From Lytechinus pictus (lineage: Eukaryota): 64,000 bases of DNA. The DNA is taken from positions 12,030,001-12,094,000 of the forward strand of contig NC_087250.1 of NCBI RefSeq assembly GCF_037042905.1, in the 5' to 3' direction. Each line of letters opens with the position of its first letter. Positions within the stretch are counted from its first letter, which is position 1. A program made the position numbers and the translations under genes. Below are positions 3,289-56,904 of this stretch, piece after piece. A model generated the notes under the pieces. The model was given only the letters and a program-made list of their open reading frames with translations. It did not search any database and was not told where the DNA came from.

Positions 3289-4225
3289 GGACGTTCCACA
3301 GTTAAAGTGAAATCCATGTCATTTTCACCAAACTTTGCACATAGATACTTTAGAACCTTAATATTCGAAATATGCAAAAATTAACATAGGTCCATGTGCT
3401 TGATTTTTGCTATAGAGCTTCAAAGTTCACCCAAATTGATGTTCTTAAGAATTGCGCATTCAAAAGAATTTGGCATTTTTAGACCGCCCAAGATTACTAC
3501 AATGAGTTTAAACCTCTATTACTCAGTCAAAATACGTGAAAAAGTCATCAAATTCCGCAAGACAGTTAATAATTATATCATTAGAATGGAGAATCTATGT
3601 ATAGTGCTATTTGTTTGCAATTTTAGGTTTAACTGCACTGTCAGTTCTTAAAAATGGCGTAAAAGATAACATAATCCCAATCTAACAAATGTGAAATTTC
3701 AGTAACTAACTACAAACGTACAATAAATGCTGCACTTTATTCAAAATCCATGTCATTTTCACCAAAATTTGCATAGTTGTAGAGGAAGGTATACCTAAGA
3801 GGTACAAACATTAAAAAATAGGGGTTCATGTGCTTGTTTTTAAACTATCAGCATTTTTATTAGAGCAAATGTGCTTTTTAAAACACCAAAAATGCGCCGA
3901 ATGCTTTGTATCTGTGTGAAGAAAAAAATCAAAACCACTCTACCATTTATTCAAACTCAGGGTAATATTAGTGATTCTTGGCAGCACTGCAGAGTATAGT
4001 ATTTTGAAATTGTAGATAATTTTTTTTTTTAATGGTCCATGGAATAATTCCATTTTTTAGCTTCATGAAATAACGCATCGGATCTGCAGTTAAAGTGCAG
4101 AAGATGAGAAAAATCAGCTCATACCCGCAGCTAGTCAATCACCTGTTCATCCATTGTGACGTCAGCGCGCAGAGTGTAAACTATGCGCAGATCATAATGC
4201 GCACAAACATAACTGTGGAACGTCC
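3289..4225. mobile_element. Kolobok-like non-autonomous DNA transposon
   Basis: TIR GGACGTTCCACAGTTA/TAACTGTGGAACGTCC with a TTAA TSD on both sides. Confidence 0.85.
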
Positions 4226-5031
4226 TTAATGCAATCAATCGTAGAAAAGTGTTTTACGAGCAGCTAAGCTTTGTGTACCTCAAGTGATGTTTGTGGAGTG
4301 GAGCCTACACGAACATCACTTGACATGCTTGAGGTAAGGCAGCTTTGTGTTACGGGCCCCAGGTCGCAGACCAATCGAAGGTTTACAGTAGCCTTGGGCC
4401 TTGATTCACAATGGACTAGATCTATCCATAACTTTCTTTTCTTTCAAATCTATTGTGATCAAAGCCCCGTCTTGCAAAGAGTTACGAATGTTCCAATCAA
4501 TCTCAACTGTATGGAAATCCATACATACCATTTTCTTCTTCTTCTTCTTCCTATATAAGTACATACCACCTGTGGTGTATTGTCGTACTGTATTGTGGAC
4601 TTGAATGCTGAGTGCTGAGTATCCACCGTTGAAGTTGTGGTAAAAAATGCCAACATATATATAATATTTACATATTTACATATTTTGTTTTCGAGAGGAA
4701 ATTTACACAATAATCTCCTTAGACTAGTAAACAAAACAAATCACACTGAATCTTGACTCTTGAGAAGAGAACGGTGAATGTATGAATATACATCATATCT
4801 AGAAAATATTGTGAAAATAACCCCCTGCATTTTTAGATGTTGACGTTGCTGGCCATCCATAGTTGTGGTTGATCGGATCAATCGAAACTCTTTGTAAGAC
4901 GGGCCCTGGTGGGTGTTTTCATAAACATGATAAATTTGTTTGTAAAGTTACGCACAACTTTACATGTACGCATGACTGGAACATGCTCTTAGGTGATAAA
5001 GCAGCTATATATATATATTTAGATATATATA

Positions 5032-5851
5032 CAGTGCGTCCCACAAAAAACGAAACCGAGATTTAGCGATGATTTATCATAACTTAATCTAAATAATATA
5101 GACAAATGACCTACCATTGTAAAGCTTAGAATTTCCTCTTTCATCTGTAATTATTTAGATTATTTCTCATTCACGCATGAGTGAGCAAAAACAATTTGAA
5201 GAGGGGATACCAAAAAGTCACTTGGCTGGCTGTATTTGGGTTTCAAAAAGAAAACCACATTTTTAAAAAGTTTAATATATGCTCTTTAATATGATACCTC
5301 AATTACAGAAAATTATCAAGTAATAACAAAGTTCTGGTTATTTGAAATAAGGCTTGAATTTCATTAATTTCATAAAATGAAGAGGTTTTACAGGCTAGCG
5401 TTCAGCCTCACTCGACACTCCGTTTTGTTGACGATCACCCATGCATTAAGTCTTTTGTTAACCATGCGATAGCTTCTGCGGGAAACCGATGAAAACACGT
5501 TTATTTAATGAAATTATGGAAATACAAGCATTGTTTCGAGGGAACAGGACTTATTTACTTCTTGACCATTTTCTGTGATTAAGGTATTAAATAAAAGAGC
5601 AGATATTGAACTTTTTAGCCATGTGGTTTTCTTTATGAAATTCAGATACCCCCTCCAAATGAGTTTTTGATATCCTTTCTTCAAATTGTTTTTGCCCACT
5701 CATGCGTGAATGAGGAATAATCGAAATAATTTCAGATGAAAGAGTAGATTCTAAGCTTTGCTTCGGTAGGTCATTTGTTTATTTTATTTATGATTAAGTT
5801 AAATGATAAATCATCGCTAAATCTCGGTTTCGTTTTTTGTGGGACGCACTG
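5032..5851. mobile_element. Tc1/mariner-like foldback MITE with long TIRs, inserted in (TA)n
   Basis: CAGTGCGTCCCACAAAAAACGAAACCGAGATTTAGCGATG and its exact reverse complement at the ends; imperfect arms of ~300 bp; TA flanks. Confidence 0.9.
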
Positions 5852-23684: not shown

Positions 23685-24620
23685 GAAAGAACAGTGTGTT
23701 CACAGTGCGCTGTGAAATCCAATCCCATTCACAGTGTGGAACACCATGTGAAATCCCATTCACACTGTGTTAACAACATTTTGATAGTGTGATTCATATC
23801 CTTGAAAGAACAGTGCGTCCCACAGTGTGTTCACAGTGTGGAACACGATGTGAAATCCCATTCACAATGTGTTTACTAGTATATCATTTTAATAGTGTGA
23901 ATCATATCTTTGAAAGAGCAGTGTGTCTTACATTGTGTCCACAGTGTGGAACACAATGTAAAATCACATTCACACTGTTTACATCTTTTTAATAGTGTGA
24001 ATCATATAATTGAAAGAGCAGTGTGTCTTACAGTGTGTTCACAGTGTGGAACACGATGTGAAATCCCATTCACAATGTGTTTACTAGTATATCATTTTAA
24101 TAGTGTGAATCATATAATTGAAAGAGCAGTGTGTCTTACAGTGTGTTCACAGTGTGGAACACAATGTAAAATCACATTCACACTGTGTTTACATCATTTT
24201 AATAGTGAGAATCATATAATTGAAAGAGCAGTGTGTCTTACAGTGTGTTCACAGTGTGGAACATGATGTGAAATCCTATTCACACTGTGCATGTTAACAT
24301 CATTTTAGTATTGTGAATCTCATCCTTCAAAGAGCAGTGTACCCCACAGTGTGGAACACGATGTAAAATCCCATTCACAATGTGTTTACTAGTACATCAT
24401 TTTTGATAGTGTGAATCATATCCTTGAAGAACAGTGTATCACACAGTGTGGAACATGATATGAAATCACATTCACCATGTTCACACTGTGTTAACATCAT
24501 TTTAACAGACCACTATGTGACCAAAGGTGTGGACACCAGTACTGCCAGGCTGTCCACTCCACACTGTGAAAATTATCTTCACTGTGGTAGATATGAGCAT
24601 ATTTTAACAGTGTGAATCAC
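23685..24620. repeat. Minisatellite of ~110-120-bp units (ACAGTGTG/CACACTGT-rich)
   Basis: TTGAAAGAGCAGTGTGTCTTACAGTGTGTTCACAGTGTGGAACAC...TCACA repeated about 7-8 times. Confidence 0.9.
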
Positions 24621-40458: not shown

Positions 40459-40703
40459 ATGCAACATAGGGTACCCATCATCAGCCAGAGATTGCTCCGT
40501 GCCAGCATCCCATACTACTTCACCCAGGTCAGAGGTCACACCGAGGTCACACAAGCTCACCGACCGTGCTTGTTGAGTAGCCGAGGTTCACATTCTTGGA
40601 GGGCGTCCGACTTGTTTCTGACAAAGACTTGTTCCCGCTCTGCACCTGGTTTGGGCTGGACCCCTGTCTCTACTTTCAAGGAAGAAGCCACAGAGCAGCC
40701 CTG
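40459..40703 (+). CDS. FDPS: FDPS coding exon 1 (N-terminal extension, [16 protein letters not shown]...)
   Basis: Acceptor tttttcaaacAG ends at 40399, followed by gccATG at 40459. The donor TG|gtaagg (phase 2) joins the next exon in frame (W-YSSDM). Confidence 0.75.
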
Positions 40704-43700
40704 GTAAGGTCTTCTCTTAAAGGGGAAGTTCACCCTGATAAGAAACTTATAGCTAGTAAAAGCAGAAAAAAATATTCATTTATTTATTTATTTATTTATT
40801 TCGTTTTATACAGGGTAGCCCCATCAGTAGTCTTGTACTGTTTTCAAGGGGGCCCTGTAAACAAATATTTACAATATATATAACAGATAAACAAAGTACA
40901 TAAGGAAAAAATAAACAGAACATGAAAATAATCAGAAGTGAATGCATGGAAAAAAGATAATGGTACCGGTACATAAGACATTTAAGTACAATGTACGAAA
41001 GTAATGTTGATTCATTTAGATTTCAATCAGCATTACAATACAGGAAAAAGCAAACCCCTCCCCCTACATTTCAATTATTTAAATTCAGGTAAAGAGAGAA
41101 AAATATCATTAATAATTATATATTGATTATGTAATTTCCTTCAGGGGTGCACGATACGGTTTAGACCACAATGCCCCAAACCTCACGCCTTGGTTTGGAT
41201 TCGATCCCACGTCCCTCTGATTGAAAGACGAGTCGTAACCACTAGACCACAACGCCCCAAACTCCACGCCTTGGTTGGGATTCGAACCCATGTCCCTCTG
41301 ATTGAAAGACGTGTCGTAACCACTAGACCACAATGCCCCAAACATCACGCCTTGGTTGGGATTCGAACCCACGTCCCTCTGATTGAAAGACGAGTCGTAA
41401 CCACTAGACCACAACGCCCCAAACTCCACGCCTTGGTTGGGATTCGAACCCATGTCCCTCTGATTGAAAGACAAGAGTCGTAACCACTAGACCACAATGC
41501 CCCAAACCTCACGCCTTGGTTGGGATTTGAAGCCACATCCCTCTGATTGAAAGCCGAGTCGTAACCACTTGACCACAATGCCCCAAACCTAACGCCTTGG
41601 TTGGGATTCGAACCCAAGTCCCTCTGATTGAAAGACGAGTCGTAACCACTAGACCACAACGCCCCAAACTCAACGCCTTGGTTGGGATTCGAACCCACGT
41701 CCCTCTGATTGAAAGACAAGAGTCGTAACCACTAGACCACAACACCCCCTCCCCTCTCCCCCTCTGCCTCCCCCTTTAATACTTTAATATGTCTTAACTG
41801 TCTTATTTCACATTTGATGAAATTTTCAACATTATGGTTGTTGGGGTTTTCTCTATTGATTCAAATCACCATTTTTTGGGGGTAGACTTCACCTTTGACC
41901 ATCTGAAGTCCTCCTTATCTCCAATATTTGTTCAGGTACTCCTCGGACATGTCGTCAGCAACTCAAGATCCTCAAACCTTTGAGAAGGTCTTCTACGAAT
42001 TGGTGGACGAACTCACGGAAGATGACGCCGCTAATCCAGAGATCGCCGATGCAGCAGCTTGGTTCAAAGAGGTAAGACATCTCACCCCTTAACAGGGGGA
42101 AGGGAGGGGGGGTGGTTAATTTGAACCCACCACCTCGCACCTTTGACAAAGTGTGCAACTTCTCTGCCGTGCCAAATTTTGTGACTGCGTAGCTTGCAGA
42201 CTTTTTAAAAGTTTTTGCGCTCTATTTTAAGACAATTGTAAAAATCAGACACACCGTTACGATGTTGGAGGATTTTTTTTACATGTACATGCATGTCAAC
42301 CCCTAAATCCTTCAAAAAGGTTTTTTTTATACAAAATCAATTCATAATGGGTTCATTTTTTTTAAACCAAAAGTCAAACAAAAAAAATGTATGATTATTT
42401 TCACTTTGCTAAAGTGGCCCAGACAAGAATCATACGTAAGAAAGTACAAAATGTTGAAAAATGTGTCTGAGAAATTCACAAAACAATTAATCTTGGAGGA
42501 ATGAGAAACAGAGGCCTTGCTTCGGTGAATGTGTTCAGACAGTAGGCGAGCAACGTTGCGATCCTTTGATATCAGATGCAGGTTTGCAATGTACTGGGAG
42601 TGCAGGCGTATGGGTCTTAGACACCATTCTCATTATACTCTCTAAAACTAGACTTGAAATCGATTCAGGAAACCAGTTTGGAAGATCGCTTTGCTAGTGT
42701 TCCCGTTTGATCAGCCGAAAGTGGTTTTCAAAACCACTTCATGTAAAGTGGCCTTGTTGCTATGGGAATGCTCTCAGTAGGGATGACATGTTTCGTGCAA
42801 ATTTGAAACCGCAGCGTAGACATTCTATACACATTGTGTGGAGTAGCACGCTCTAAATGTGCGAAGATCGCTTCCCGGAGAACTGTTGTGTCCTCCCTTA
42901 TGCTAAAACCAGTTTAGCGAGGCAGAGCGATCTTGAAAAGTACTTAGGGTGGTGGTTTTCCGAACTGATTTGGAAGATCGCTTTCAAGACGGCTTTGACC
43001 GTTCTCATAACACGTTAAACTAGTTTCCACTATACTCGTTTTATGGTAATAATGAGAACAGGGTCTTATTGTTTTAAATGTGTTGAGAGGAGTTGGCTAG
43101 CAATGTTATGATTCTCTTTAGATGCTGGTTTGCCCGTAGTAAAGTCAGGCAGCTCTTTCTGTATCGAATGTGTTTAGATGGTCGGCTAACAACGTTATAA
43201 TTGCCTTACTATTCAGATACTGGTTTACAATGTATCGGGAATGGCAGAGCGGCGGAGCAGAGGATTATCTTTTGTGTTTGGGGGGACGTCTATTGTTGCG
43301 TCCCCCCCAAACACAAAAGATAATCCTCTGCTCCGCCGCCAATGGGGAATGGGTCTTTCTTTAGTGAATGTGTTCAGACAGCTAGCTAGCAACGGTGTTA
43401 TTCTTTTATTTCAGATGCTTGTTTACATTGTTCCAGGTTGAAAGAACGAAAAAGGTCCAAGTACTCTGATGAATGCGTTCAGACAGTTCACTAACAACCT
43501 TCTGCGTATCTTATTTATTTCAGATGCTGGTTTACAATGTTCCGGGAGGAAAGAGAAACCGAGGTCTTACTGTGGCGAATGCGTTCAGACAACTGGCAAA
43601 CAGCGTTCAAAGCACAGAAGATAACATTCATATAGCAATGGTTCTCGGCTGGTGTGTCGAATGGGTAAATTCTTATCAACAAAGAAATCATATCAGATAG

Positions 43701-46700
43701 AGGGGGGGGTCACAAAGTTTTAATTATGACCCACTTAAATGCAGATGCTTTATGATATGTAATGCGCAATCTTATTGATTAATAATCAGTAGTGCGCGTC
43801 CTCTTGGCATGATCTGACCAATGCAGTCGTGCCTTTTGCAATGCACGCAACTCGGCATTTACGTGCGAGTGCGACTCTAAGTCATACTTAAATATTTGTG
43901 AAGCACCCCCCTGGATCTAGTTGAATTTTAAAAATGTGCCACAGGATTCTGGGAGAAATTGTGTAATTGCTGAGAAATAAGCAAAATGAGAATGACATTT
44001 CACCTTATTGCCAGGTCTTTTTCCAACCAATAATGATACACCGTCCCACATGCGCTTATCTGTGATGGCGATCTCCATTGTGATCATTTTTCACAAAGTT
44101 CAATTTATGTATCTCCACCAGAGCTACATAGAGATCTAGCATAATGTAGTGACAATTAACTTTGACTTTACAGATTTTCTCATGAAATCAGTGTTTACTG
44201 GAACTACTTTCATTTATAATAAGTTCTTCATGTTTCTCCAACAATACCTCAAGGGTAATAACAGCAGTACTGCTGCGTGATGCCTGCGTATGAGAAAAAA
44301 ATCAGAGGCAGACTGCGTTATTTGAACCCACGACATCTGGATTACTAGACCAGTGTCATAACCACTAGACCACCGGAGTGCCCTTTCATTTATCTTTAAT
44401 ACTCATCCTGTTTTTCTCTTCATGTTTTCAGCTACAAGCCTACTTCCTAATAGCCGATGATATGATGGACCAATCAAAGACAAGGAGAGGTCAGCCTTGT
44501 TGGTATAAGAAGGTATGGAGAGACAGGATGGTGGTAGTGATGATGATTATGATGATGATGGTGACGGTGGTGGTGGTGATGAGGATGATGATGATGATGT
44601 TAATGGGGTTTATTATCTATTGGTCTGATACCACTTCGTCCAATTACCAACTCATCTACTACCATTTGGTCTACCATCATTTCGTCCACTGTCCTCATAT
44701 CTAATTGCCATTTCGACCACTCACCATTTCGTCTTATAACCATTTGGTCCAATTGCCATTTAGTCCATATACCATTTGGTCTAATTTGAAAAAGTGTTAA
44801 TAGGGCCAAATGAAAGAAAATTTAATGGATATTGGACCAAATGGTTATGAGACGAAATGATCATAGACGAACTGGTGATTAGACGAAGTGATGATTAGAC
44901 CAAATTGTTATGGACCAAATGGTTTTTAGACGAAGTGTTGATGGGCGGAATGACATTAGACTAAATTAAGTTAGACCACGTGGTGTGTAGATGAGTTCAC
45001 AATAGACGAATTGGCAATTTTACTGATAATGGAAGTGGTGGTGGTGATGATGATGGCGGTGATGTGTGGATGATGATGATGGTGGTGATGATGGTGATGA
45101 TGGTGATGATGATGATGGTGTGATGATGATGATGATGAGGAGGAGGAGGATGACGGTGGTGGTGGTGGTGGTGATGATGATAATATAGATTAGGATGATG
45201 ATGATGATGGCGATAAAAGCGTTAGTTTTGCAGATGCAGTTATTGGAGGACCTTTCACCAAGAACAGAGACAAATCCCCAATATTCTTACACCTCATTTA
45301 TACATTTCCATTCTTTTTGGTAGGATGGTGTGGGAACAGTTGCAATCAATGACTCATTCTACGTTGAAGCCTGCATCTACAAAATTCTCAAGAGATTCAT
45401 TAGTCATCAACCCTACTATGTCCAAGTGATGGAATTATTTCACGAGGTTTGTCAAGGTCTTTGTTGTATTTGCCATTAAAGCAGCAAAAAAAAAATGATT
45501 TCAATTAAAAAAATATGAAAAGGAATAGAATTCTAAGAACAATAGTGGTTTGAAATTGTCATATACTATTTCATTACCCATGTTCAGTTTCCCTTGGCCA
45601 TCTTGGATTTTGGGACGGCACTCTTTTTTCTCGAATCCAAGACCAAAAGTGTTGTCATTTCATTTTGAGATCGGGTAAAAGGACCAAATAAAAGCTGTTC
45701 CCAAAATGAAATAACGGGAAAAGCCATTTTGACAACCCTGAAGTCCACTCCAATTAAATAGGAAAATGAAATTTAAAAAATTACAAATATATGATTATAT
45801 TGCTAGTTTCACTGATTATTTTTATTTGATTTTCAGTGTGATACCACCATCACTTTGGCAGAAATTCACACAGGTAGTTTTGAAAACCGCCGGCTGAAGT
45901 GATGGTTGATAAAGATTTGCTGTATTAAACTTTGCTTGATTTTTTGTACATGAAAAAAGTCCTGGTTTTGTCACAGTGTGCCAAACTTACGCCTGTTGCC
46001 GTGGTTAAGCATGCTATTTTATTCATGAGTCCACTGTTTTGAGCAGTGGGCTCATTAATTCAAAACAATGGACTTGGGAATAAAATAGCGTACTCAACCA
46101 TGGCAACAGGCGTAAGTTTGCTGCCTCGTGACAACAGCATGCATCAGCATTGGACTTTGTTTATGTGGTATTGTAAGCATGATTTATACAGGAAATCTGC
46201 ATACCCCTTGGGTTCAACTCATTTAAAAAAATTCCTTTGAGAATTAGGGTCTTATGGGTAGAACTTGGCTGAAAGGTACCCTTCATTCATCGGCTGAATG
46301 TGACCTGCCTCTCCGAAACCAGCAACAAGTAGTCCAAAATGGTTTCGAGTATGTTTACTTATTTTTAAAAAGCACATCTTATTCTTAAGCCTTAAACGGA
46401 CACATGATCAGATGTGTATCCAGCATCAGATCCTAAAAAGCATTTCATGGGCCTAATTAGGAGACAATAATGACTATTATGCTTGCACATGGGCCCATAC
46501 ATGCTGGATACGCTAGTTCACGATTTCCCAAACTGATCAACAACTACCCACGTAGTTACGTTATTGAATGCAGAATAAATTCAGTGAAAGATTCAAAGAA
46601 TAAAGAGAAAACAGAGTTTCAAGTTTTGGCTTGAAGATAAACACCAGTTGTACGTGGTAACGATCTCAAAATGAGTTCGAATAGAGTCCAATAAAATGAC

Positions 46701-49700
46701 CACCCAAGACGTGTTTGTATGTATAAATTAAAAACATGTGCCAATTGACTCTGGAAAACAATGTGTAATTGCTGACAAATGGGCAAAATAAGCACGGAAT
46801 TCCATAATATGTCGGGTATTATTCCAAGCATTATTAATACACTGTCCCACATATGCGTTTCTGTGTTAGTGATCATTAGAATTATGATCGGTTTTCAGCT
46901 AATATTTCATGATTTCACAAAGGTAAGTTTATTTCAATGTAGCAGAACTAGTTCTATGACAATATGGTAGCATTAAACATGATTTGAAAAGCTTTTTCTT
47001 GAAATTATTATTTGCTGCAATTCTTTTCTTTTACCTTTAACTCAAGTATGAAATGTGCTATCTGTGCAATCTCCAATGATGATTATTGGTGCACTGGACG
47101 CACTGCAAATTAGAGTGAGCACTTTGATAAATTTGTCATGATTATTATTATTTGTTTTATCTTCTTTACGCTTGCAGACGACGTACCAGACGATCATGGG
47201 TCAAAGTTTAGATCTACTGACGTCTCCAGAAAATGACAGGGATCTCAACAGGTTCACGGAACAGAGGTAATTACAGGGTATCGGTGAACCACAAGGTCTG
47301 GGATTCAAATCTCAATGCAGTAATGGTGTCCATGGCAAAGTGTTTATATACAATTGACACTCTTCACCCAGGTGTTGTTGATGGGTTCCCAGTAGAAAGG
47401 ATTTATTTGAATGCTTGAGCACTGGATCAGGGTGGCTGTTCTAAAGCTGGGAGATTGTACGAAGCATGATATAGATGTTGCATATCATACTTGTTTAAGA
47501 GAGTTTGTTTAGGCTTGATATTTTACATAAATTGTAACTTTATATTTAGTTTTATGTCTACTGACTAGCTTTCATTACTTTATATTTTGTTTAATGTCGT
47601 TCTTTTCTATTGTTAATGATGTTTATAATACAATCTGATCTATTTTATTATGTTCTGGACCCCTAGGCAGAACAGAGTGGTAAAAATTACCACTCTGAAT
47701 GGGCAATCCAGCCATTCATATGTATTCATTTTATTTTGTAATTATATCTGATGTATTTTGTTTGTATTTTGCATGTTTTTATGAATGGAAAATAAATACA
47801 ATACAATAAAGTACGTTTTGAAATGGCATACATATTTTCTTCTATACATGAAAAAAAGAAAGAAGAAAATCCATATTTAATGTTCGAAATAGAAATATTC
47901 CGAAAATCAATTTTGCCCAGTTGATTGTGGACCCAGCAGCCACAGACTGTGCAGCGCCAGATTGACTAGGCTCTATCCCTTAAATGTTGAATGCCAAACA
48001 TGGTAGCAGCAACTCCAATCTTTTTACGTCTTTTGGTCTGACGCGGCTTGGGTGTGAACTCATGAGCTCTTCCAACTGAGCTAACACACCGGTCTGTACA
48101 TGTACATACAAACACCCTCAATGGTAATTTTATTGGATTCTATGGGAGATAGTCTTTAGATTGTTACAACAACTGGCATTTATACACTGTGCATATCCAT
48201 TCATTGCATATTTTCTCCTCTTTTTAACAGATATGCTGCAATAGTCAAATGGAAGACTGCTTTCTATTCCTTCTATCTGCCCGTTGCTCTAGCTATGCAT
48301 ATGGTGAGTTATGCAAGCCTTCTTTGAGAATTAAGTAAAATGAAATTTCATTTTAAAGGACAAGTCCACCCTATCAAAAAGTTGGTTTGAATAAATAAGA
48401 GAAAAAAAATCAAACAAGCATAACACTAAATATTTCATCGAATCGGATGTAAAATAAGAAAGTTATGACAATTTAAAGTTTTGGTTATTTTCACGAAACA
48501 ATTATATTCACATCCTGAAATGTGAGCATTGGTATTAAATGAAAAGCTTGCAGGATTCCCGAACGAAAGACACGGCTGAATTTTGACAAGGTGCTTTCAT
48601 CGATGTAAGTTTGAGGGAATCAACGTCATGCCAGGTATTGAATCCATAACTTATGTGTCTCTTGTCAGGTACATACTAATAGCATACTCACCATTTTACT
48701 ATGATACACATGATTTAAAGGATGTATTCAAATTGAGCATCAAAGTTTACATAAGATGAAGGCTATTTTTTTCTCTCGGTGTTATGAGGGTTGTAATGAA
48801 AACGTTTTTTATAAAAAAAACAAATAAAACGTTTTTTATTGTTTTAAAACGTTTTAAATCGTTTTAAAACTTCTTTTTTTCCAACGATCGATGTAATTTT
48901 CCTGTAAATCAATTAAATCATACACTTAATACAGTATGATTTGAGCTCTTGATGTTTGAAATACATTTTTGGAGTAAGTAAGAGATGACTACAATTTTTG
49001 TTACTGAATTTTCAACAGAAAAGTTCATATTTTTCCCCAAAAAACATGTTTTAAAACACACCGTTTAAAACGTGCCAACCCTGGTTATGTTGCTACCAAG
49101 TTATGTTCTTCTTTCAAATCAGGTCGGAATATCAGATGCCAAGTCTCACACCAATGCAAAGACAATCTTACTTCAGATGGGCCATTTCTTTCAAGTTCAG
49201 GTAAGTTACTCTTGTAAGTTCTTGTAATATTGATAGAGAAGCAGAGCGAACAAATGTAGCTGGTTAATTTTCTAGGTTCAAAAAGTGACCGCACACCTTT
49301 TGACAAAAGGGAAAAGTAAGAAAGAAAATTAGGAGATTGGTAACAGCACATTTGGGGGAGGGGGGTGTGGAAGACGGATTGTGAGGTCAGAGAATAAGGG
49401 GTAATGCAATTATATTAATAATAGCAGTATACTTACCCAGGATAGCCACTTCAGTTCCGAAACTTATTCTCCCAGCGGGCCCTGCTACATTATTATTATT
49501 ATTACCCCAGCTTTAGCTCGGCTGCGTAGGCGCTCAAGCTTTCAAGGAATTCCTTCCTACCGGGTACCCAATCGCCTCCCATGGGTTGAGTGCAGCACAA
49601 TGTGGGTGAATTTCTTGCTGGAGGAAACCACGCCATGGCTGGGATTTGAACCCACGTCCATCAGATTGAGAGACGAGTGTCGTAACCACTAGACCACAAC

Positions 49701-52700
49701 GCGCCCAGAGTTAAATAGAAAAGGGATAGAATTCAAAGCAGGGCAAAGATTTCATGGGGGCCGTGGGCGATTTAGTCCCCAAAATGCTCGACCGAGCCCT
49801 GGAAATACCCATTCATTGCAATGTTAAAGCTTACCCAGTGTTGCAGATGTAGGCTCCCAAAATTAAACAAAAATCGATTGAAATTATATGAAAAAAATTC
49901 CTTTCTGTCTTCCTCTTTTTTTTAGGATGACTATTTGGATTGTTACGGTGCTCAAGAGGTCATCGGTAAAATCGGGACGGACATAGAAGAGAATAAATGT
50001 GATCGGTTGGTTGTTCAGGCTCTGAAGGGTTACATCAGAATGAAGAAAGATTCCAATGAAAATATGAATAATTGCTTTCTTGTTTTTCTCTCTCTCTCTC
50101 TGTTTAGGATGACTATTTGGATTGTTACGGTGCTCAAGAGGTCATCGGTAAAATCGGGACGGACATAGAAGAGAGTAAATGTGATTGGTTGGTTGTCCAG
50201 GCTCTGAAGGGTTACCTCAGAATGAAGAAAGATTCCAATGAAAATATGAATAATTGCTTTCTTGTTTTTTTCTCTCTCTCTCTGTTTAGGATGACTATTT
50301 GGATTGTTACGGGGCTCCAGAGGTCATTGGTAAAATCGGGACGGACATAGAAGAGAATAAATGTGGTTGGCTGGTTGTTCAGGCTCTGAAGGGTTACATC
50401 AGAATGAAGAGAGAAAGATTCCAATAAAAATAGGAATAATTGCTTTCTTGTTTTTCTCTCTCTCTCTCTGTTAAGGATGACTATTTGGATTGTTACGGGG
50501 CTCCAGAGGTCATTGGTCAAATCAGGACGGACATAGAAGAGAATAAATGTGGTTGGTTGGTTGTTCAGGCTCTGAAGGGTTACATCAGAATGAAGAGAGA
50601 AAGATTCCAATGAAAATATGAATAATTGCTTTCTTGTTTTTCTCTCTCTCTCTCTGTTAAGGATGACTATTTGGATTGTTACGGGGCTCCAGAGGTCATT
50701 GGTCAAATCAGGACAGACATAGAAGAGAATAAATGTGGTTGGTTGGTTGTTCAGGCTCTGAAGGGTTACCTCAGAATGAAGAGAGAAAGATTCCAATGAA
50801 AATATGAATAATTGCTTTCTTGTTTTTCTCTCTCTCTCTCTGTTTAGGATGACTATTTGGATTGTTACGGGGCTCCAGAGGTCATCGGTAAAATCGGGAC
50901 GGACATAGAAGAGAGTAAATGTGATTGGTTGGTTGTTCAGGCTCTGAAGGGTTACATCAGAATGAAGAGAGAAAGATTCCAATGAAAATATGAATAATTG
51001 CTTTCTTGTTTTTCTCTCTCTCTCTCTGTTAAGGATGACTATTTGGATTGTTACGGGGCTCCAGAGGTCATTGGTAAAATCGGGACGGACATAGAAGAGA
51101 ATAAATGTGGTTGGCTGGTTGTTCAGGCTCTGAAGGGTTACATCAGAATGAAGAGAGAAAGATTCCAATGAAAATAGGAATAATTGCTTTCTTGTTTTTC
51201 TCTCTCTCTCTCTGTTAAGGATGACTATTTGGATTGTTACGGGGCTCCAGAGGTCATCGGTAAAATCGGGACGGACATAGAAGAGAGTAAATGTGGTTGG
51301 TTGGTTGTTCAGGCTCTGAAGGGTTACATCAGAATGAAGAGAGAAAGATTCCAATGAAAATAGGAATAATTGCTTTCTTGTTTTTCTCTCTCTCTCTCTG
51401 TTAAGGATGACTATTTGGATTGTTACGGGGCTCCAGAGGTCATTGGTCAAATCAGGACGGACATAGAAGAGAATAAATGTGGTTGGTTGGTTGTTCAGGC
51501 TCTGAAGGGTTACCTCAGAATGAAGAGAGAAAGATTCCAATGAAAATATGAATAATTGCTTTCTTGTTTTTCTCTCTCTCTCTCTGTTTAGGATGACTAT
51601 TTGGATTGTTACGGGGCTCCAGAGGTCATTGGTCAAATCAGGACAGACATAGAAGAGAATAAATGTGGTTAATTGGTTGGTTGTTCAGGCTCTGAAGGGT
51701 TACCTCAGAATGAAGAGAGAAAGATTCCAATGAAAATATGAATAATTGCTTTCTTGTTTTTCTCTCTCTCTCTCTGTTAAGGATGACTATTTGGATTGTT
51801 ACGGGGCTCCAGAGGTCATTGGTAAAATCGGGACGGACATAGAAGAGAGTAAATGTGATTGGTTGGTTGTTCAGGCTCTGAAGGGTTACATCAGAATGAA
51901 GAGAGAAAGATTCCAATGAAAATATGAATAATTGCTTTCTTGTTTTTCTCTCTCTCTCTCTGTTTAGGATGACTATTTGGATTGTTACGGGGCTCCAGAG
52001 GTCATCGGTAAAATCGGAACAGACATAGAAGAGAATAAATGTGATTGGTTGGTTGTCCAGGCTCTGAAGGGTTACATCAGAATGAAGAGAGAAAGATTCC
52101 AATGAAAATAGGAATAATTGCTTTCTTGTTTTTCTCTCTCTCTCTCTGTTAAGGATGACTATTTGGATTGTTACGGGGCTCCAGAGGTCATTGGTAAAAT
52201 CGGGACGGACATAGAAGAGAGTAAATGTGATTGGTTGGTTGTTCAGGCTCTGAAGGGTTACATCAGAATGAAGAGAGAAAGATTCCAATGAAAATATGAA
52301 TAATTGCTTTCTTGTTTTTCTCTCTCTCTCTCTGTTTAGGATGACTATTTGGATTGTTACGGGGCTCCAGAGGTCATTGGTCAAATCAGGACAGACATAG
52401 AAGAGAATAAATGTGGTTAATTGGTTGGTTGTTCAGGCTCTGAAGGGTTACCTCAGAATGAAGAGAGAAAGATTCCAATGAAAATATGAATAATTGCTTT
52501 CTTGTTTTTCTCTCTCTCTCTCTGTTTAGGATGACTATTTGGATTGTTACGGGGCTCCAGAGGTCATCGGTAAAATCGGGACGGACATAGAAGAGAGTAA
52601 ATGTGATTGGTTGGTTGTTCAGGCTCTGAAGGGTTACATCAGAATGAAGAGAGAAAGATTCCAATGAAAATATGAATAATTGCTTTCTTGTTTTTCTCTC

Positions 52701-55700
52701 TCTCTCTCTGTTAAGGATGACTATTTGGATTGTTACGGGGCTCCAGAGGTCATTGGTAAAATCGGGACGGACATAGAAGAGAATAAATGTGGTTGGCTGG
52801 TTGTTCAGGCTCTGAAGGGTTACATCAGAATGAAGAGAGAAAGATTCCAATGAAAATAGGAATAATTGCTTTCTTGTTTTTCTCTCTCTCTCTCTGTTAA
52901 GGATGACTATTTGGATTGTTACGGGGCTCCAGAGGTCATCGGTAAAATCGGGACGGACATAGAAGAGAGTAAATGTGGTTGGTTGGTTGTTCAGGCTCTG
53001 AAGGGTTACATCAGAATGAAGAGAGAAAGTTTCCAATGAAAATATGAATAATTGCTTTCTTGTTTTTCTCTCTCTCTCTCTGTTAAGGATGACTATTTGG
53101 ATTGTTACGGGGCTCCAGAGGTCATTGGTCAAATCAGGACGGACATAGAAGAGAATAAATGTGGTTGGTTGGTTGTTCAGGCTCTGAAGGGTTACCTCAG
53201 AATGAAGAGAGAAAGATTCCAATGAAAATATGAATAATTGCTTTCTTGTTTTTCTCTCTCTCTCTCTGTTTAGGATGACTATTTGGATTGTTACGGGGCT
53301 CCAGAGGTCATCGGTAAAATTGGGACGGACATAGAAGAGAGTATGATTGGTTGGTTGTTCAGGCTCTGAAGGGTTACATCAGAATGAAGAGAGAAAGATT
53401 CCAATGAAAATATGAATAATTGCTTTCTTGTTTTTCTCTCTCTCTCTCTGTTAAGGATGACTATTTGGATTGTTACGGGGCTCCAGAGGTCATTGGTTAA
53501 ATCGGGACGGACATAGAAGAGAGTAAATGTGATTGGTTGGTTGTTCAGGCTCTGAAGGGTTACATCAGAATGAAGAGAGAAAGATTCCAATGAAAATAGG
53601 AATAATTGCTTTCTTGTTTTTCTCTCTCTCTCTCTGTTAAGGATGACTATTTGGATTGTTACGGGGCTCCAGAGGTCATTGGTAAAATCGGGACGGACAT
53701 AGAAGAGAATAAATGTGGTTGGCTGGTTGTTCAGGCTCTGGAGGGTTACATCAGAATGAAGAGAGAAAGATTCCAATGAAAATAGGAATAATTGCTTTCT
53801 TGTTTTTCTCTCTCTCTCTCTGTTAAGGATGACTATTTGGATTGTTACGGGGCTCCAGAGGTCATCGGTAAAATCGGGACGGACATAGAAGAGAGTAAAT
53901 GTGGTTGGTTGGTTGTTCAGGCTCTGAAGGGTTACATCAGAATGAAGAGAGAAAGTTTCCAATGAAAATATGAATAATTGCTTTCTTGTTTTTCTCTCTC
54001 TCTCTCTGTTAAGGATGACTATTTGGATTGTTACGGGGCTCCAGAGGTCATTGGTCAAATCAGGACGGACATAGAAGAGAATAAATGTGGTTGGTTGGTT
54101 GTTCAGGCTCTGAAGGGTTACCTCAGAATGAAGAGAGAAAGATTCCAATGAAAATATGAATAATTGCTTTCTTGTTTTTCTCTCTCTCTCTCTGTTTAGG
54201 ATGACTATTTGGATTGTTACGGGGCTCCAGAGGTCATCGGTAAAATTGGGACGGACATAGAAGAGAGTATGATTGGTTGGTTGTTCAGGCTCTGAAGGGT
54301 TACATCAGAATGAAGAGAGAAAGATTCCAATGAAAATATGAATAATTGCTTTCTTGTTTTTCTCTCTCTCTCTCTGTTAAGGATGACTATTTGGATTGTT
54401 ACGGGGCTCCAGAGGTCATTGGTTAAATCGGGACGGACATAGAAGAGAGTAAATGTGATTGGTTGGTTGTTCAGGCTCTGAAGGGTTACATCAGAATGAA
54501 GAGAGAAAGATTCCAATGAAAATATGAATAATTGCTTTCTTGTTTTTCTCTCTCTCTCTCTGTTTAGGATGACTATTTGGATTGTTACGGGGCTCCAGAG
54601 GTCATCGGTAAAATCGGAACAGACATAGAAGAGAATAAATGTGATTGGTTGGTTGTCCAGGCTTTAAAGGGTTACCTCAGAATGAAGAGACAAAGATTCC
54701 AACGAAAATATAAATAATTTTTTTTCTCTCTCTCTCTGTTTAGGATGACTATTTGGATTGTTACGGTGCTCAAGAGGTCATCGGTAAAATCGGAACAGAC
54801 ATAGAAGAGAATAAATGTGGTCGGTTGGTTGTTCAGGCTCTGAAGGGTTACATCAGAATGAAGAGAGAAAGATTCCAATGAAAATATAAATAATTGTTTT
54901 TTTTTTCTCTCTCTCTGTTTAGGATGACTATTTGGATTGTTACGGGGCTCCAGAGGTCATCGGTAAAATCGGAACGGACATAGAGGAGAATAAATGCGGT
55001 TGGCTGGTTGTTCAGGCTCTGAAGGGTTACATCAGAATGAAGAGAGAAAGATTCCAATGAAAATATGAATAATTGCTTTCTTGTTTTTCTCTCTCTCTCT
55101 CTGTTAAGGATGACTATTTGGATTGTTACGGGGCTCCAGAGGTCATTGGTAAAATCGGGACGGACATAGAAGAGAATAAATGTGGTTGGCTGGTTGTTCA
55201 GGCTCTGAAGGGTTACATCAGAATGAAGAGAGAAAGATTCCAATGAAAATAGGAATAATTGCTTTCTTGTTTTTCTCTCTCTCTCTCTGTTAAGGATGAC
55301 TATTTGGATTGTTACGGGGCTCCAGAGGTCATCGGTAAAATCGGGACGGACATAGAAGAGAGTAAATGTGGTTGGTTGGTTGTTCAGGCTCTGAAGGGTT
55401 ACATCAGAATGAAGAGAGAAAGTTTCCAATGAAAATATGAATAATTGCTTTCTTGTTTTTCTCTCTCTCTCTCTGTTAAGGATGACTATTTGGATTGTTA
55501 CGGGGCTCCAGAGGTCATTGGTCAAATCAGGACGGACATAGAAGAGAATAAATGTGGTTGGTTGGTTGTTCAGGCTCTGAAGGGTTACCTCAGAATGAAG
55601 AGAGAAAGATTCCAATGAAAATATGAATAATTGCTTTCTTGTTTTTCTCTCTCTCTCTCTGTTTAGGATGACTATTTGGATTGTTACGGGGCTCCAGAGG

Positions 55701-56904
55701 TCATCGGTAAAATTGGGACGGACATAGAAGAGAGTATGATTGGTTGGTTGTTCAGGCTCTGAAGGGTTACATCAGAATGAAGAGAGAAAGATTCCAATGA
55801 AAATATGAATAATTGCTTTCTTGTTTTTCTCTCTCTCTCTCTGTTAAGGATGACTATTTGGATTGTTACGGGGCTCCAGAGGTCATTGGTTAAATCGGGA
55901 CGGACATAGAAGAGAGTAAATGTGATTGGTTGGTTGTTCAGGCTCTGAAGGGTTACATCAGAATGAAGAGAGAAAGATTCCAATGAAAATATGAATAATT
56001 GCTTTCTTGTTTTTCTCTCTCTCTCTCTGTTTAGGATGACTATTTGGATTGTTACGGGGCTCCAGAGGTCATCGGTAAAATCGGAACAGACATAGAAGAG
56101 AATAAATGTGATTGGTTGGTTGTCCAGGCTTTAAAGGGTTACCTCAGAATGAAGAGACAAAGATTCCAACGAAAATATAAATAATTTTTTTTCTCTCTCT
56201 CTCTGTTTAGGATGACTATTTGGATTGTTACGGTGCTCAAGAGGTCATCGGTAAAATCGGAACAGACATAGAAGAGAATAAATGTGGTCGGTTGGTTGTT
56301 CAGGCTCTGAAGGGTTACATCAGAATGAAGAGAGAAAGATTCCAATGAAAATATAAATAATTGTTTTTTTTTTCTCTCTCTCTGTTTAGGATGACTATTT
56401 GGATTGTTACGGGGCTCCAGAGGTCATCGGTAAAATCGGAACGGACATAGAGGAGAATAAATGCGGTTGGCTGGTTGTTCAGGCGCTGAAGAGGGTCACC
56501 CCGGAACAGAGAAGTATACTCGAGGTAAATATTCTTTGATTGAATTAAGTTTCAGATAACTAAAGCTCACTTTATTTCCTAATTTAAGGACTTTGCCCCC
56601 CCCCCCTTGCTCTCACTTGATGCTTGACGTTAATGAAGAGATCATCACGGAATCAGTTATGAAATACCTGTATGATATTTCTCTCCCTCTTTTTGTTTAT
56701 TAGGAAAACTATGGCATAGATGATGCCGAGAAGGTCGCGAAGGTGAAAGAACTCTACGCGACCCTTGACCTGGAGGGCGTTTATAGGTCGTATGAAGAAT
56801 CCAGCTATAATGATTTGATGGATACAATTAACAGCCACAGTGAAACGTTACCGAAAGATATATTTGTCGCTTTCGCCAAGAGGATTTATAAAAGGAATAA
56901 GTAA
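40459..56904 (+). CDS. FDPS: Farnesyl pyrophosphate synthase, spliced: join(40459-40703,41936-42071,43524-43664,44432-44512,45324-45446,47178-47266,48231-48303,49123-49200,56390-56524,56704-56904), 433 aa
   Basis: All introns are GT-AG with consistent phases, and the total of 1302 nt ends in TAA. The translation has [26 protein letters not shown] (FARM), [34 protein letters not shown] (SARM), [14 protein letters not shown] and C-terminal KRIYKRNK, collinear with animal FPPS. Confidence 0.95.
41162..41743 (-). repeat. Seven tandem 81-83-bp tRNA-like SINE heads in the FDPS intron after coding exon 1
   Basis: Unit TTTGGGGCGTTGTGGTCTAGTGGTTACGACTCGTCTTTCAATCAGAGGGACGTGGGTTCGAATCCCAACCAAGGCGTG with Pol III A and B boxes; matches the SINE heads at 49630-49702 and 60798-60875. 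Confidence 0.92.
41936..42071 (+). CDS. FDPS: FDPS exon 2 ([45 protein letters not shown])
   Basis: ttcAG acceptor and gag|gtaaga donor; matches the FPPS N-terminal helices; second ATG at 41949. Confidence 0.92.
42620..43065. mobile_element. PIF/Harbinger-like MITE inserted in a decayed exon-3 copy
   Basis: TTA|GACACCATTCTCATTAT...ATAATGAGAACAGGGTC|TTA; removing it restores exon-like sequence. Confidence 0.75.
43245..43344. mobile_element. 100-bp hairpin hAT-like MITE in a decayed exon-3 copy
   Basis: Near-perfect ~40-bp stem with a 10-nt loop; 8-bp TSD GGGAATGG (43237-43244, 43345-43352). Confidence 0.85.
43524..43664 (+). CDS. FDPS: FDPS exon 3 ([17 protein letters not shown]...GWCVEW)
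   Basis: tttcAG acceptor and tgg|gtaaat donor; 47 codons; GGKxxR motif. Confidence 0.95.
44432..44512 (+). CDS. FDPS: FDPS exon 4, first aspartate-rich motif ([27 protein letters not shown])
   Basis: ttttcAG acceptor and aag|gtatgg donor; DDxxD with aromatic Y/F at -5/-4, the chain-length signature of C15 FPPS. Confidence 0.96.
44525..45212. repeat. (GAT/GGT)n microsatellite interrupted by a foldback element (44610-45020)
   Basis: Direct reading. Confidence 0.85.
45324..45446 (+). CDS. FDPS: FDPS exon 5 ([25 protein letters not shown]...ELFHE)
   Basis: tAG acceptor and gag|gtttgt donor; AIND motif. Confidence 0.93.
47178..47266 (+). CDS. FDPS: FDPS exon 6 ([29 protein letters not shown])
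   Basis: tgcAG acceptor and ag|gtaatt donor; GQxxD motif. Confidence 0.94.
48231..48303 (+). CDS. FDPS: FDPS exon 7 ([24 protein letters not shown])
   Basis: taacAG acceptor and atg|gtgagt donor; KT motif. Confidence 0.95.
49123..49200 (+). CDS. FDPS: FDPS exon 8 ([26 protein letters not shown])
   Basis: atcAG acceptor and cag|gtaagt donor; FQxQ preceding the SARM. Confidence 0.95.
49490..49705 (-). mobile_element. tRNA-derived SINE
   Basis: Reverse complement of the SINE head and core seen at 17835. Confidence 0.82.
49870..56490 (+). repeat. Tandem array of ~186-bp units (35 truncated copies plus the real exon) of FDPS intron 8 acceptor and partial exon 9
   Basis: AG|GATGACTATTTGGATTG recurs 36 times from 49926 to 56390, with periods of 176-190 bp (mostly 186). 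Confidence 0.97.
56390..56524 (+). CDS. FDPS: FDPS exon 9, second aspartate-rich motif; the only complete copy ([45 protein letters not shown])
   Basis: Last unit of the tandem array; the only one continuing to [12 protein letters not shown] and a gag|gtaaat donor. Confidence 0.93.
56704..56904 (+). CDS. FDPS: FDPS terminal exon ([18 protein letters not shown]...KRIYKRNK*)
   Basis: ttAG acceptor, 66 codons plus TAA; basic FPPS C-terminus. Confidence 0.95.
   Translation, partial: ENYGIDDAEKVAKVKELYATLDLEGVYRSYEESSYNDLMDTINSHSETLPKDIFVAFAKRIYKRNK

Follow-up and report, generated by a model that had tools for sequence, protein, structure and literature searches.

In human F7, the first element of the 37-bp variable number tandem repeat (VNTR) of intron 7 (IVS7) spans the exon 7 boundary, and the identical 5′ pseudo-sites are normally silent; splicing takes place solely at the site adjoining the intact exon, which makes the repeat a natural model of splice-site choice (Borensztajn et al. 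2006, PMC1557585). The 25-bp VNTR of human ABCA7 intron 18 starts with the exon 18 donor and ranges from 12 to ~427 units, changing intron size several-fold, and both the retention of one unit via a cryptic donor and a length-dependent skipping of exon 19 have been measured for it (De Roeck et al. 2018, PMC5954066). Two further systems are related. According to the Rogers model, a new intron arises from a duplicated exonic AGGT, the tandem duplication being silenced by splicing (Hellsten et al. 2011, PMC3265369), and decoy exons are conserved cassette exons with both splice sites that cause intron retention (Parra et al. 2018, PMC6097662). Minisatellites across a splice junction are known from the donor side (F7 and ABCA7), where they have served to study how 5′ splice sites are chosen. 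Here we describe an unusually large acceptor-side example, located in an essential, single-copy gene of a laboratory sea urchin, the farnesyl diphosphate synthase gene (FDPS) of Lytechinus pictus. The window analyzed is a stretch of 64,000 nt (NCBI RefSeq assembly GCF_037042905.1, contig NC_087250.1, positions 12,030,001 to 12,094,000 of the forward strand), and all positions given below are counted from its first letter. Our literature searches found no paper on an exon-derived array in echinoderm FDPS.

Intron 8 of FDPS holds 35 tandem decoy units, each made of an acceptor and a truncated copy of exon 9, stacked directly in front of the real exon 9, which belongs to the 36th unit (Table 1). 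We think it likely that the array is a tolerated junction-spanning intronic minisatellite, derived from tandem duplication over the intron 8/exon 9 boundary of this single-copy gene and skipped since its decoys lack a donor. The array is confined to this locus, and there has been recent exchange between it and the real exon; exon 8 is joined to exon 9 at a normal rate, and no decoy-derived RNA was seen in three runs. The array would, on this reading, be neutral.

The motif AGGATGACTATTTGGAT, a 17-base string AG|GATGACTATTTGGAT, has 36 exact matches on the + strand, from 49924 to 56388 (0.02 expected by chance; 36 reached in 0 of 100 shuffles), and Tandem Repeats Finder returned a single array at 49924-56491 with a period of 186, 35.6 copies, and 95% matches. 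Both agree with the first-pass annotation of this DNA, made from the letters alone, which had listed 36 AG-led units at 49926, 50108 ... 56390, coordinates that refer to the first exon base of each. A decoy unit consists, in order, of AG, exon 9 positions 1 to ~102, ~20 nt of uncertain origin, and ~61 nt of intron 3′ end with its (CT)n tract, and the exon part (~102 nt) translates to the 34-residue peptide of the SARM (second aspartate-rich motif) exon or to near variants. Past the exon part, units 1-35 continue as GGTTAC(A/C)TCAGAATGAAG... and then mostly reach a stop. Unit 36 alone reads on into the real exon tail (...AAGAGGGTCACC... / AGGGTCACCCCGGAACAG...CTCGAG|GTAAAT) and, as had been claimed, is the only complete one. 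Repeat homology stops ~102 nt into exon 9, and the last unit thus spans the intron-exon boundary. A pyrimidine tract and an AG are present in all 35 decoys, with AAG as the acceptor in 19 and TAG, as at the real site, in 16; AG|GATGAC is found in 36/36 units.

Within the 811.7-Mb assembly, 36 of 36 matches to the repeat unit fall inside the array (counts are lower bounds, and there was one candidate region). The repeat is therefore local, and copies at other loci, which would mark a dispersed satellite family, were absent from these matches. At its 5′ edge the array is diverged; 49868-49917 aligns locally with the unit tail at a score of 20, which was reached by 0 of 2000 shuffles. The 35 decoys comprise 21 distinct sequences, and all 36 units comprise 22, laid out in an ordered higher-order pattern, with a mean pairwise identity among decoys of 93.9% (range, 81-100%).

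The gene itself, at 40459..56904 on the + strand, was delineated by tblastn with an FPPS-like (farnesyl pyrophosphate synthase-like) protein of L. variegatus (P0001) and a check of splice sites. It has ten coding exons, its introns are GT..AG throughout, and its coding sequence of 1302 nt translates to 433 amino acids with one terminal stop. This model carries the first aspartate-rich motif (FARM), DDMMD, at 183 and the SARM, DDYLD, at 323, and it shows 0 differences from the RefSeq Lytechinus pictus protein 'farnesyl pyrophosphate synthase-like isoform X1' (P0179). Its nearest database proteins are echinoid FPPS, and PF00348 (polyprenyl synthetase) is present in 120 of the 120 homologues listed. 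The exon 9 peptide (45 amino acids) aligns to residues 238-282 of avian FPPS 1FPS (best E, 1.6e-18) and matches 51 FPPS-type PDB sequences, which bears out its earlier identification as the SARM exon. All 45 FPPS matches found in the assembly lie at this locus (match counts again being lower bounds), and FDPS is single-copy in the assembly. Intron 8 measures 7189 nt, and the remaining introns measure 179-1731 nt. Two observations concern the FPPS proteins. L. variegatus has two FPPS-like RefSeq proteins (P0001 and P0181, of 434 and 436 amino acids) on one 47.8-Mb contig, and the L. pictus assembly has one FDPS locus. In L. pictus, exon 1 codes for an 82-residue N-terminal extension that isoform X2 (347 amino acids) does not have (P0179/P0180), which suggests alternative starts giving differently targeted forms of the enzyme.

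Use of the decoys in RNA was examined by mapping reads to 47000-50105, a segment with exons 6-8, the unique part of intron 8, and unit 1, which stood in, as a collapsed proxy, for the whole set of units. The material consisted of three raw-read runs depleted of ribosomal RNA (X19, X20, and X21), all carrying the same species label, and of an additional set of contigs, X1 (its status as RNA is a guess); reads counted as sense when their first mate mapped to the minus strand. The junction from exon 8 to the unit acceptor AG|GATGAC was covered by 35, 50, and 34 sense reads in X19, X20, and X21, respectively, and was used as often in the three runs as the neighboring junctions, exon 6 to exon 7 (35, 42, and 59) and exon 7 to exon 8 (30, 55, and 33). 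Each of the three was also found in one X1 contig.

The letters in these reads were those of the real exon. Position 50007 was C in 44/44, 36/36, and 41/41 reads (X19, X20, and X21), the letter of the real exon and of only 6 of the 35 decoys; the letter carried by the other 29 was seen in 0 of 121 reads. Positions 49976 and 49979 were A in 45/45 (X19) and 51/51 (X20) reads, the majority decoy letters at 49976 appearing in 0 of 96, and the combination of A53, A56, and C88 occurs in no decoy of the assembly. X21 was mixed, with A in 21 of 48 reads at 49976 and 49979, and it is also heterozygous in exon 6 (47183, 20/43). We conclude that the mixed letters of X21 represent an allele of the real exon and not decoy use, because 56% decoy reads would fill the decoy tail, which stays unfilled. 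Mean depth was 40, 47, and 41 (X19, X20, and X21) over 49912-50015 and 5.3, 4.4, and 5.4 over 50016-50105, a bin in which 12 bases are common to the exon and 78 belong to the decoy tail; by simple arithmetic, the 12 shared bases alone account for the depth there. Over the unique intron 8 bin 49288-49391, depth was 0 in all three runs, against 24-59 over exons. No antisense reads were found over the unit in X19-X21, and no back-joints from donor-like GTs within units were found among the joints listed.

One exon 9 type per allele was therefore what the RNA contained, and all 4 RefSeq models of L. pictus in the cluster have the tail of the real exon 9. Decoy-derived RNA went unseen and could make up at most ~2.5-3% of exon-9-type reads (0/121 and 0/96, rule of three, on the one-unit proxy), and within this detection limit the decoys are skipped completely, as had been claimed when the array was first noticed. 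The X1 set contains a low-depth contig (9.09 vs 44.3) of 216 letters that covers a whole decoy unit of the 186 type with its tail; 216 equals 186 + 30, the length that a 31-word graph would give for a 186-bp cycle. This contig supports the reality of the array in independent data and is compatible with trace pre-mRNA or with DNA.

What marks the real site can be approached through unit 28, a recombinant decoy that differs from the real acceptor at a single base over the stretch between ~1281 nt upstream and 95 nt downstream. Therefore, the branch point, the pyrimidine tract, the AG, and the upstream context are not what distinguishes the real site, and the deciding signal must lie in the last third of the exon together with the GAG|GTAAAT donor. 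In exon definition, U1 bound at the downstream donor stabilizes U2AF/U2 at the acceptor across the exon. Exon definition, which the first-pass annotation had presumed, would thus be a reasonable mechanism for skipping the decoys, the context shared with unit 28 being consistent with it. Unit 28 amounts to a built-in control, nearly identical to the real site over this span, with mRNA made from the real site only, and with it one can test directly, in a living nonvertebrate deuterostome, the proposition that acceptor choice is made across the exon from its downstream side. Recursive splicing was also considered and is ruled out, since the AG|GA junction of 36/36 units cannot rebuild a donor, which needs AG|GT.

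The coding potential of the decoys is eroded. The register of 34 codons is kept in 30 of the 35, three of which (units 20, 25, and 33) have a stop at codon 15, and the other five (units 10, 14, 19, 24, and 32) have 4-nt indels in the exon part. Hence the earlier statement that every unit has a tract, an AG, and about 34 codons holds for the AG in all units and for the codons in those 30 decoys; it does not hold for the five with indels, and the AG belongs to an AAG in 19. Only five decoys encode the 34 amino acids of the real exon. Their tails read as one 15-residue sequence in 18 of the 35, as a second and a third 15-residue sequence in 5 and 3, and as a 19-residue sequence in 2; units 1 and 2 run on without an early stop, and five are frameshifted. 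The 19 variable sites of the exon part divide into 7 nonsynonymous, 1 nonsense, and 11 synonymous, there are two kinds of frameshift, and five synonymous sites set the real exon apart from nearly all decoys. We conclude that the exon parts of the decoys are under no protein-level constraint. The decoy-type tail was present in 0 of 67 proteins from an open reading frame (ORF) search and the decoy motifs in 0 of 178 protein sequences. Other data sets thus yield no sign of the array at the protein level, although small intronic ORFs are rarely called.

The array also retains a record of its recent history. Positions 53640-55017 equal 55107-56484 at 1377 of 1378 bases, and the two copies part at 55018/56485, inside the exon part. 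The block of eight units thus records an unequal exchange of very recent date, in which the partners were offset by eight units and crossed over within the live exon 9. Because the duplicate ends inside the real exon, the array grows by unequal exchange in which that exon takes part, and the near-identity of the block suggests a recent change of the array. Five letters separate the real exon from most decoys; unit 28 has four of them, lacking G102, along with the T-rich tract of the real acceptor. The exon parts of the decoys are ~91-99% like the real exon, whereas the edges of the array have decayed, a difference that would arise because the exchanges include the live exon. The expressed exon 9 is itself polymorphic, at synonymous exon positions 51 and 54 (proxy positions 49976 and 49979): X19 and X20 carry A-A, X21 carries both A-A and G-G, and X1 shares A-G with the assembly. 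All three expressed haplotypes are also present among the decoys, which suggests exchange of sequence between the array and the live exon. An original duplication of whole exons with their donors was considered as a starting point and dropped: the first 40 nt of the decoy tail match exon positions 103+ at a score reached by 144 of 2000 shuffles, which is nonsignificant.

We propose that the array started with a tandem duplication across the acceptor of exon 9. By geometry, only the last copy would stay joined to the remainder of the exon and its donor, and each earlier copy would be an acceptor with a truncated exon lacking a proper 5′ splice site. A stack of copies ahead of the exon would therefore call for no special explanation. 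The array may then have been enlarged and homogenized by unequal crossing-over and gene conversion, and, the first ~100 nt of the real exon being part of the repeat, the real exon would take part in these exchanges, which would keep the decoys resembling fresh exon copies as the edges decay. If the exon tail and its donor, lying downstream, determine the acceptor across the exon, the decoys would be ignored and the entire array removed with intron 8, leaving a normal mRNA. A tolerated exon-derived satellite had been the fallback of the first-pass annotation, and it is the best fit to the lack of decoy RNA and the normal use of the junction.

We also weighed readings that give the array a function. 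In the most far-reaching, which we consider unlikely, the array would be a brake, or a nuclear-detention or nonsense-mediated decay (NMD) sink, on the sole FDPS gene in some stage or tissue, its 35 tract/AG modules, transcribed minutes before the real acceptor, loading U2AF/U2 in a copy-number-dependent manner; it would in addition serve as a store of synonymous variants that are traded with the catalytic exon, and the three expressed exon 9 haplotypes do all occur among the decoys.

Quite unlikely, to our minds, is a pure NMD sink, the copy-number-tunable rheostat that the first-pass annotation had raised, in which a copy-number-dependent share of transcripts joins exon 8 to a decoy, meets a stop, and is degraded, thereby tuning FDPS output. 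Splicing to a decoy would indeed place a premature stop ahead of the final junction of the RNA, and steady-state RNA-seq could miss products that are degraded; a TAG acceptor like the real one is present in 16 of 35 decoys, and the context of unit 28 matches the real one. Set against this are the missing majority decoy letters (0/121 reads at 50007 and 0/96 in X19 and X20 at 49976), a decoy-tail depth of ~0 even with 35 copies collapsed on one unit, exon 8 to exon 9 junction counts equal to those of the neighbors, and the free decay of the decoys (stops, indels, and AAG acceptors in 19/35). Given that no decoy-derived RNA was seen (bound, ~2.5-3%; one study, NMD uninhibited), the rheostat is unsupported.

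The zero depth over the unique part of intron 8 in three runs, beside depths of 24-59 over exons, bears on a related and very unlikely reading, that of intron detention or kinetic delay of the decoy-exon type. Here U2AF/U2 bound at the decoy acceptors would, in certain tissues or stages, hold up the excision of intron 8 or prevent it. The 35 pyrimidine tracts and AG sites within one intron would suit such a role, and a decoy-exon model exists for large introns, with weakly spliced cryptic exons binding U2AF (PMC6097662); the intron depth speaks against it.

It is highly improbable that the array is a product of the assembler, or that assembly inflated the number of copies and the 8-unit duplicate. 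Long repeats of near-identical sequence are easily misassembled, the 1467-bp block is identical to its twin at 1377 of 1378 bases, and the array was read from the assembly. Yet the 36 units resolve into 22 distinct sequences in an ordered pattern, and the 216-letter contig of the independent X1 set (read as 186 + 30, as argued above) runs over a whole decoy unit. Finally, a decayed cluster of mutually exclusive, Dscam-like alternative exons, suggested by tandem homologous exon copies with their own acceptors and by 14 of 21 matches by eye between the first ~20 nt of the decoy tail and exon positions 103-123, can be set aside as extremely improbable, given the nonsignificant similarity of tail to exon (144/2000 shuffles), the absence of the exon's donor GAG|GTAAAT from every decoy unit and their divergence past exon position ~102, a spacing that would leave introns of ~45-60 nt, and no alternative exon 9 sequence in the RNA or the four RefSeq models.

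Several points weigh against a tolerated minisatellite. Synonymous sites are somewhat over-represented among the variable sites of the decoy exon parts (11/19); exchange with a selected real exon would explain this excess, but so would weak constraint. Absence of a donor in the decoys is relative, not absolute: donor-like GTs within the units, such as AGA|GTAAAT in Ser-variant units, match the consensus at 6-7 of 9 positions by crude counting, and the nine real donors match it at 6-9. The earlier claim that the decoys lack the exon's donor is thus right for GAG|GTAAAT itself, which no decoy contains, and too strong for donors in general. Two acceptor-spanning arrays in one gene (see below) are mildly above chance, our rough estimate being that ~10% of random 186-bp duplications in FDPS would span an acceptor. 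As for the RNA, reads were placed on a one-unit proxy, so that assignment to unit 36 is by diagnostic letters and the missing tail depth and not by a direct 49200>56390 joint; the letters, joints, and loose ends are those listed, and rare decoy events may lie beyond them; NMD was uninhibited; and the raw reads come from one study of unspecified tissue, in animals different from the one assembled.

The second array, older and decayed, precedes the real exon 3 and comprises four to five partial copies of the acceptor and the first ~85-100 nt of that exon. Its copies score 46-99, against a maximum of 37 in 100 shuffles. Four still end in CAG or TAG right before AT(G/A)C, and a palindromic insert near 43240-43330 interrupts one.

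Other repeats were seen at the locus. In intron 1, an 81-bp tandem array of 7.2 copies (41162-41748) is the tRNA-like head of a short interspersed element (SINE), with a minus-strand tRNA-Leu(caa) called by ARAGORN at 41593-41662. One copy of the same element lies in intron 8 at 49430-49700, with an RNA depth of ~3700-5700 on one strand; this SINE family is highly expressed elsewhere. The intronic segments 47936-48143 and 48352-48559 have RNA depth in the hundreds on both strands with many mismatches and are probably members of expressed dispersed repeat families. Intron 4 contains a (TGA)n microsatellite of ~55 copies at 45045-45209, flanked by 16-bp and 32-bp repeats at 44724-44934, and upstream of FDPS, at 23728-24487, is a tandem repeat of 97-108 bp (208-bp higher-order unit) in ~7 copies. 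The FDPS locus is generally prone to tandem duplication.

Table 1. Coordinates of the FDPS exons, intron 8, and the two acceptor-spanning arrays within the window
Feature	Position	Strand	Remark
FDPS exon 1	40459-40703	+	
FDPS exon 2	41936-42071	+	
Second array, older and decayed	42483..43496	+	before real exon 3 (43524); 4-5 partial copies of acceptor and first ~85-100 nt of exon 3
Copies of exon 3 array	42483-42619, 43103-43196, 43205-43276, 43352-43394, 43402-43496	+	
FDPS exon 3	43524-43664	+	
FDPS exon 4	44432-44512	+	
FDPS exon 5	45324-45446	+	
FDPS exon 6	47178-47266	+	
FDPS exon 7	48231-48303	+	
FDPS exon 8	49123-49200	+	
Intron 8	49201..56389	+	donor CAG|GTAAGT at 49200/49201; array fills ~6.46 kb
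5′ edge of array, diverged	49868..49923	+	original intron end, homologous to last ~61 nt of each unit
35 decoy units	49924..56387	+	176-190 nt each, mostly 186
Older copy of very recent 1467-bp (8-unit) duplication	53640..55017	+	near-identity to 55107-56484
Unit 28, recombinant decoy	54921..55106	+	real exon letters A53, G65, C77, C88 and real acceptor context; decoy tail
Unit 36	56388..56524	+	real acceptor TAG at 56387-56389; full exon 9 56390-56524
FDPS exon 9 (SARM exon)	56390-56524	+	donor GAG|GTAAAT
FDPS exon 10	56704-56904	+	

The array carries a warning for gene predictors and variant callers, in that 35 near-perfect copies of a catalytic-motif exon sit in an intron and exchange sequence with the real exon.

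Compared with the systems described at the outset, FDPS follows the Rogers model examined by Hellsten et al. in having an intragenic tandem duplication whose redundant part is spliced out, with the protein unchanged; it differs in that an existing intron was lengthened by repeated duplication of its 3′ junction. Like the decoy exons of Parra et al., the FDPS decoys are nonproductive acceptor-bearing elements inside a large intron, but they have no paired donor, and retention of intron 8 was unseen in the three runs. The ABCA7 repeat resembles the FDPS array in abutting an exon and including its splice site, whereas no aberrant FDPS isoform was seen in three RNA runs. Closest is F7 IVS7. There, as here, the terminal unit of a minisatellite spans an exon-intron boundary and places the authentic site beside silent pseudo-sites, although the F7 repeat is donor-side, with 37-bp intron units in few copies. 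The FDPS array, from an echinoderm, lies on the acceptor side, and its 35 copies are 186-bp units with ~102 nt of coding exon in each; the silence of its decoys comes from RNA-seq and not from minigenes. The FDPS array has the features of a junction-spanning minisatellite: it is contiguous with the exon boundary, a splice signal is present in every unit, and the pseudo-sites are silent in normal RNA (to a limit of ~2.5-3%, on the one-unit proxy). It is the acceptor-side mirror of the donor-side F7 IVS7 and ABCA7 VNTRs.

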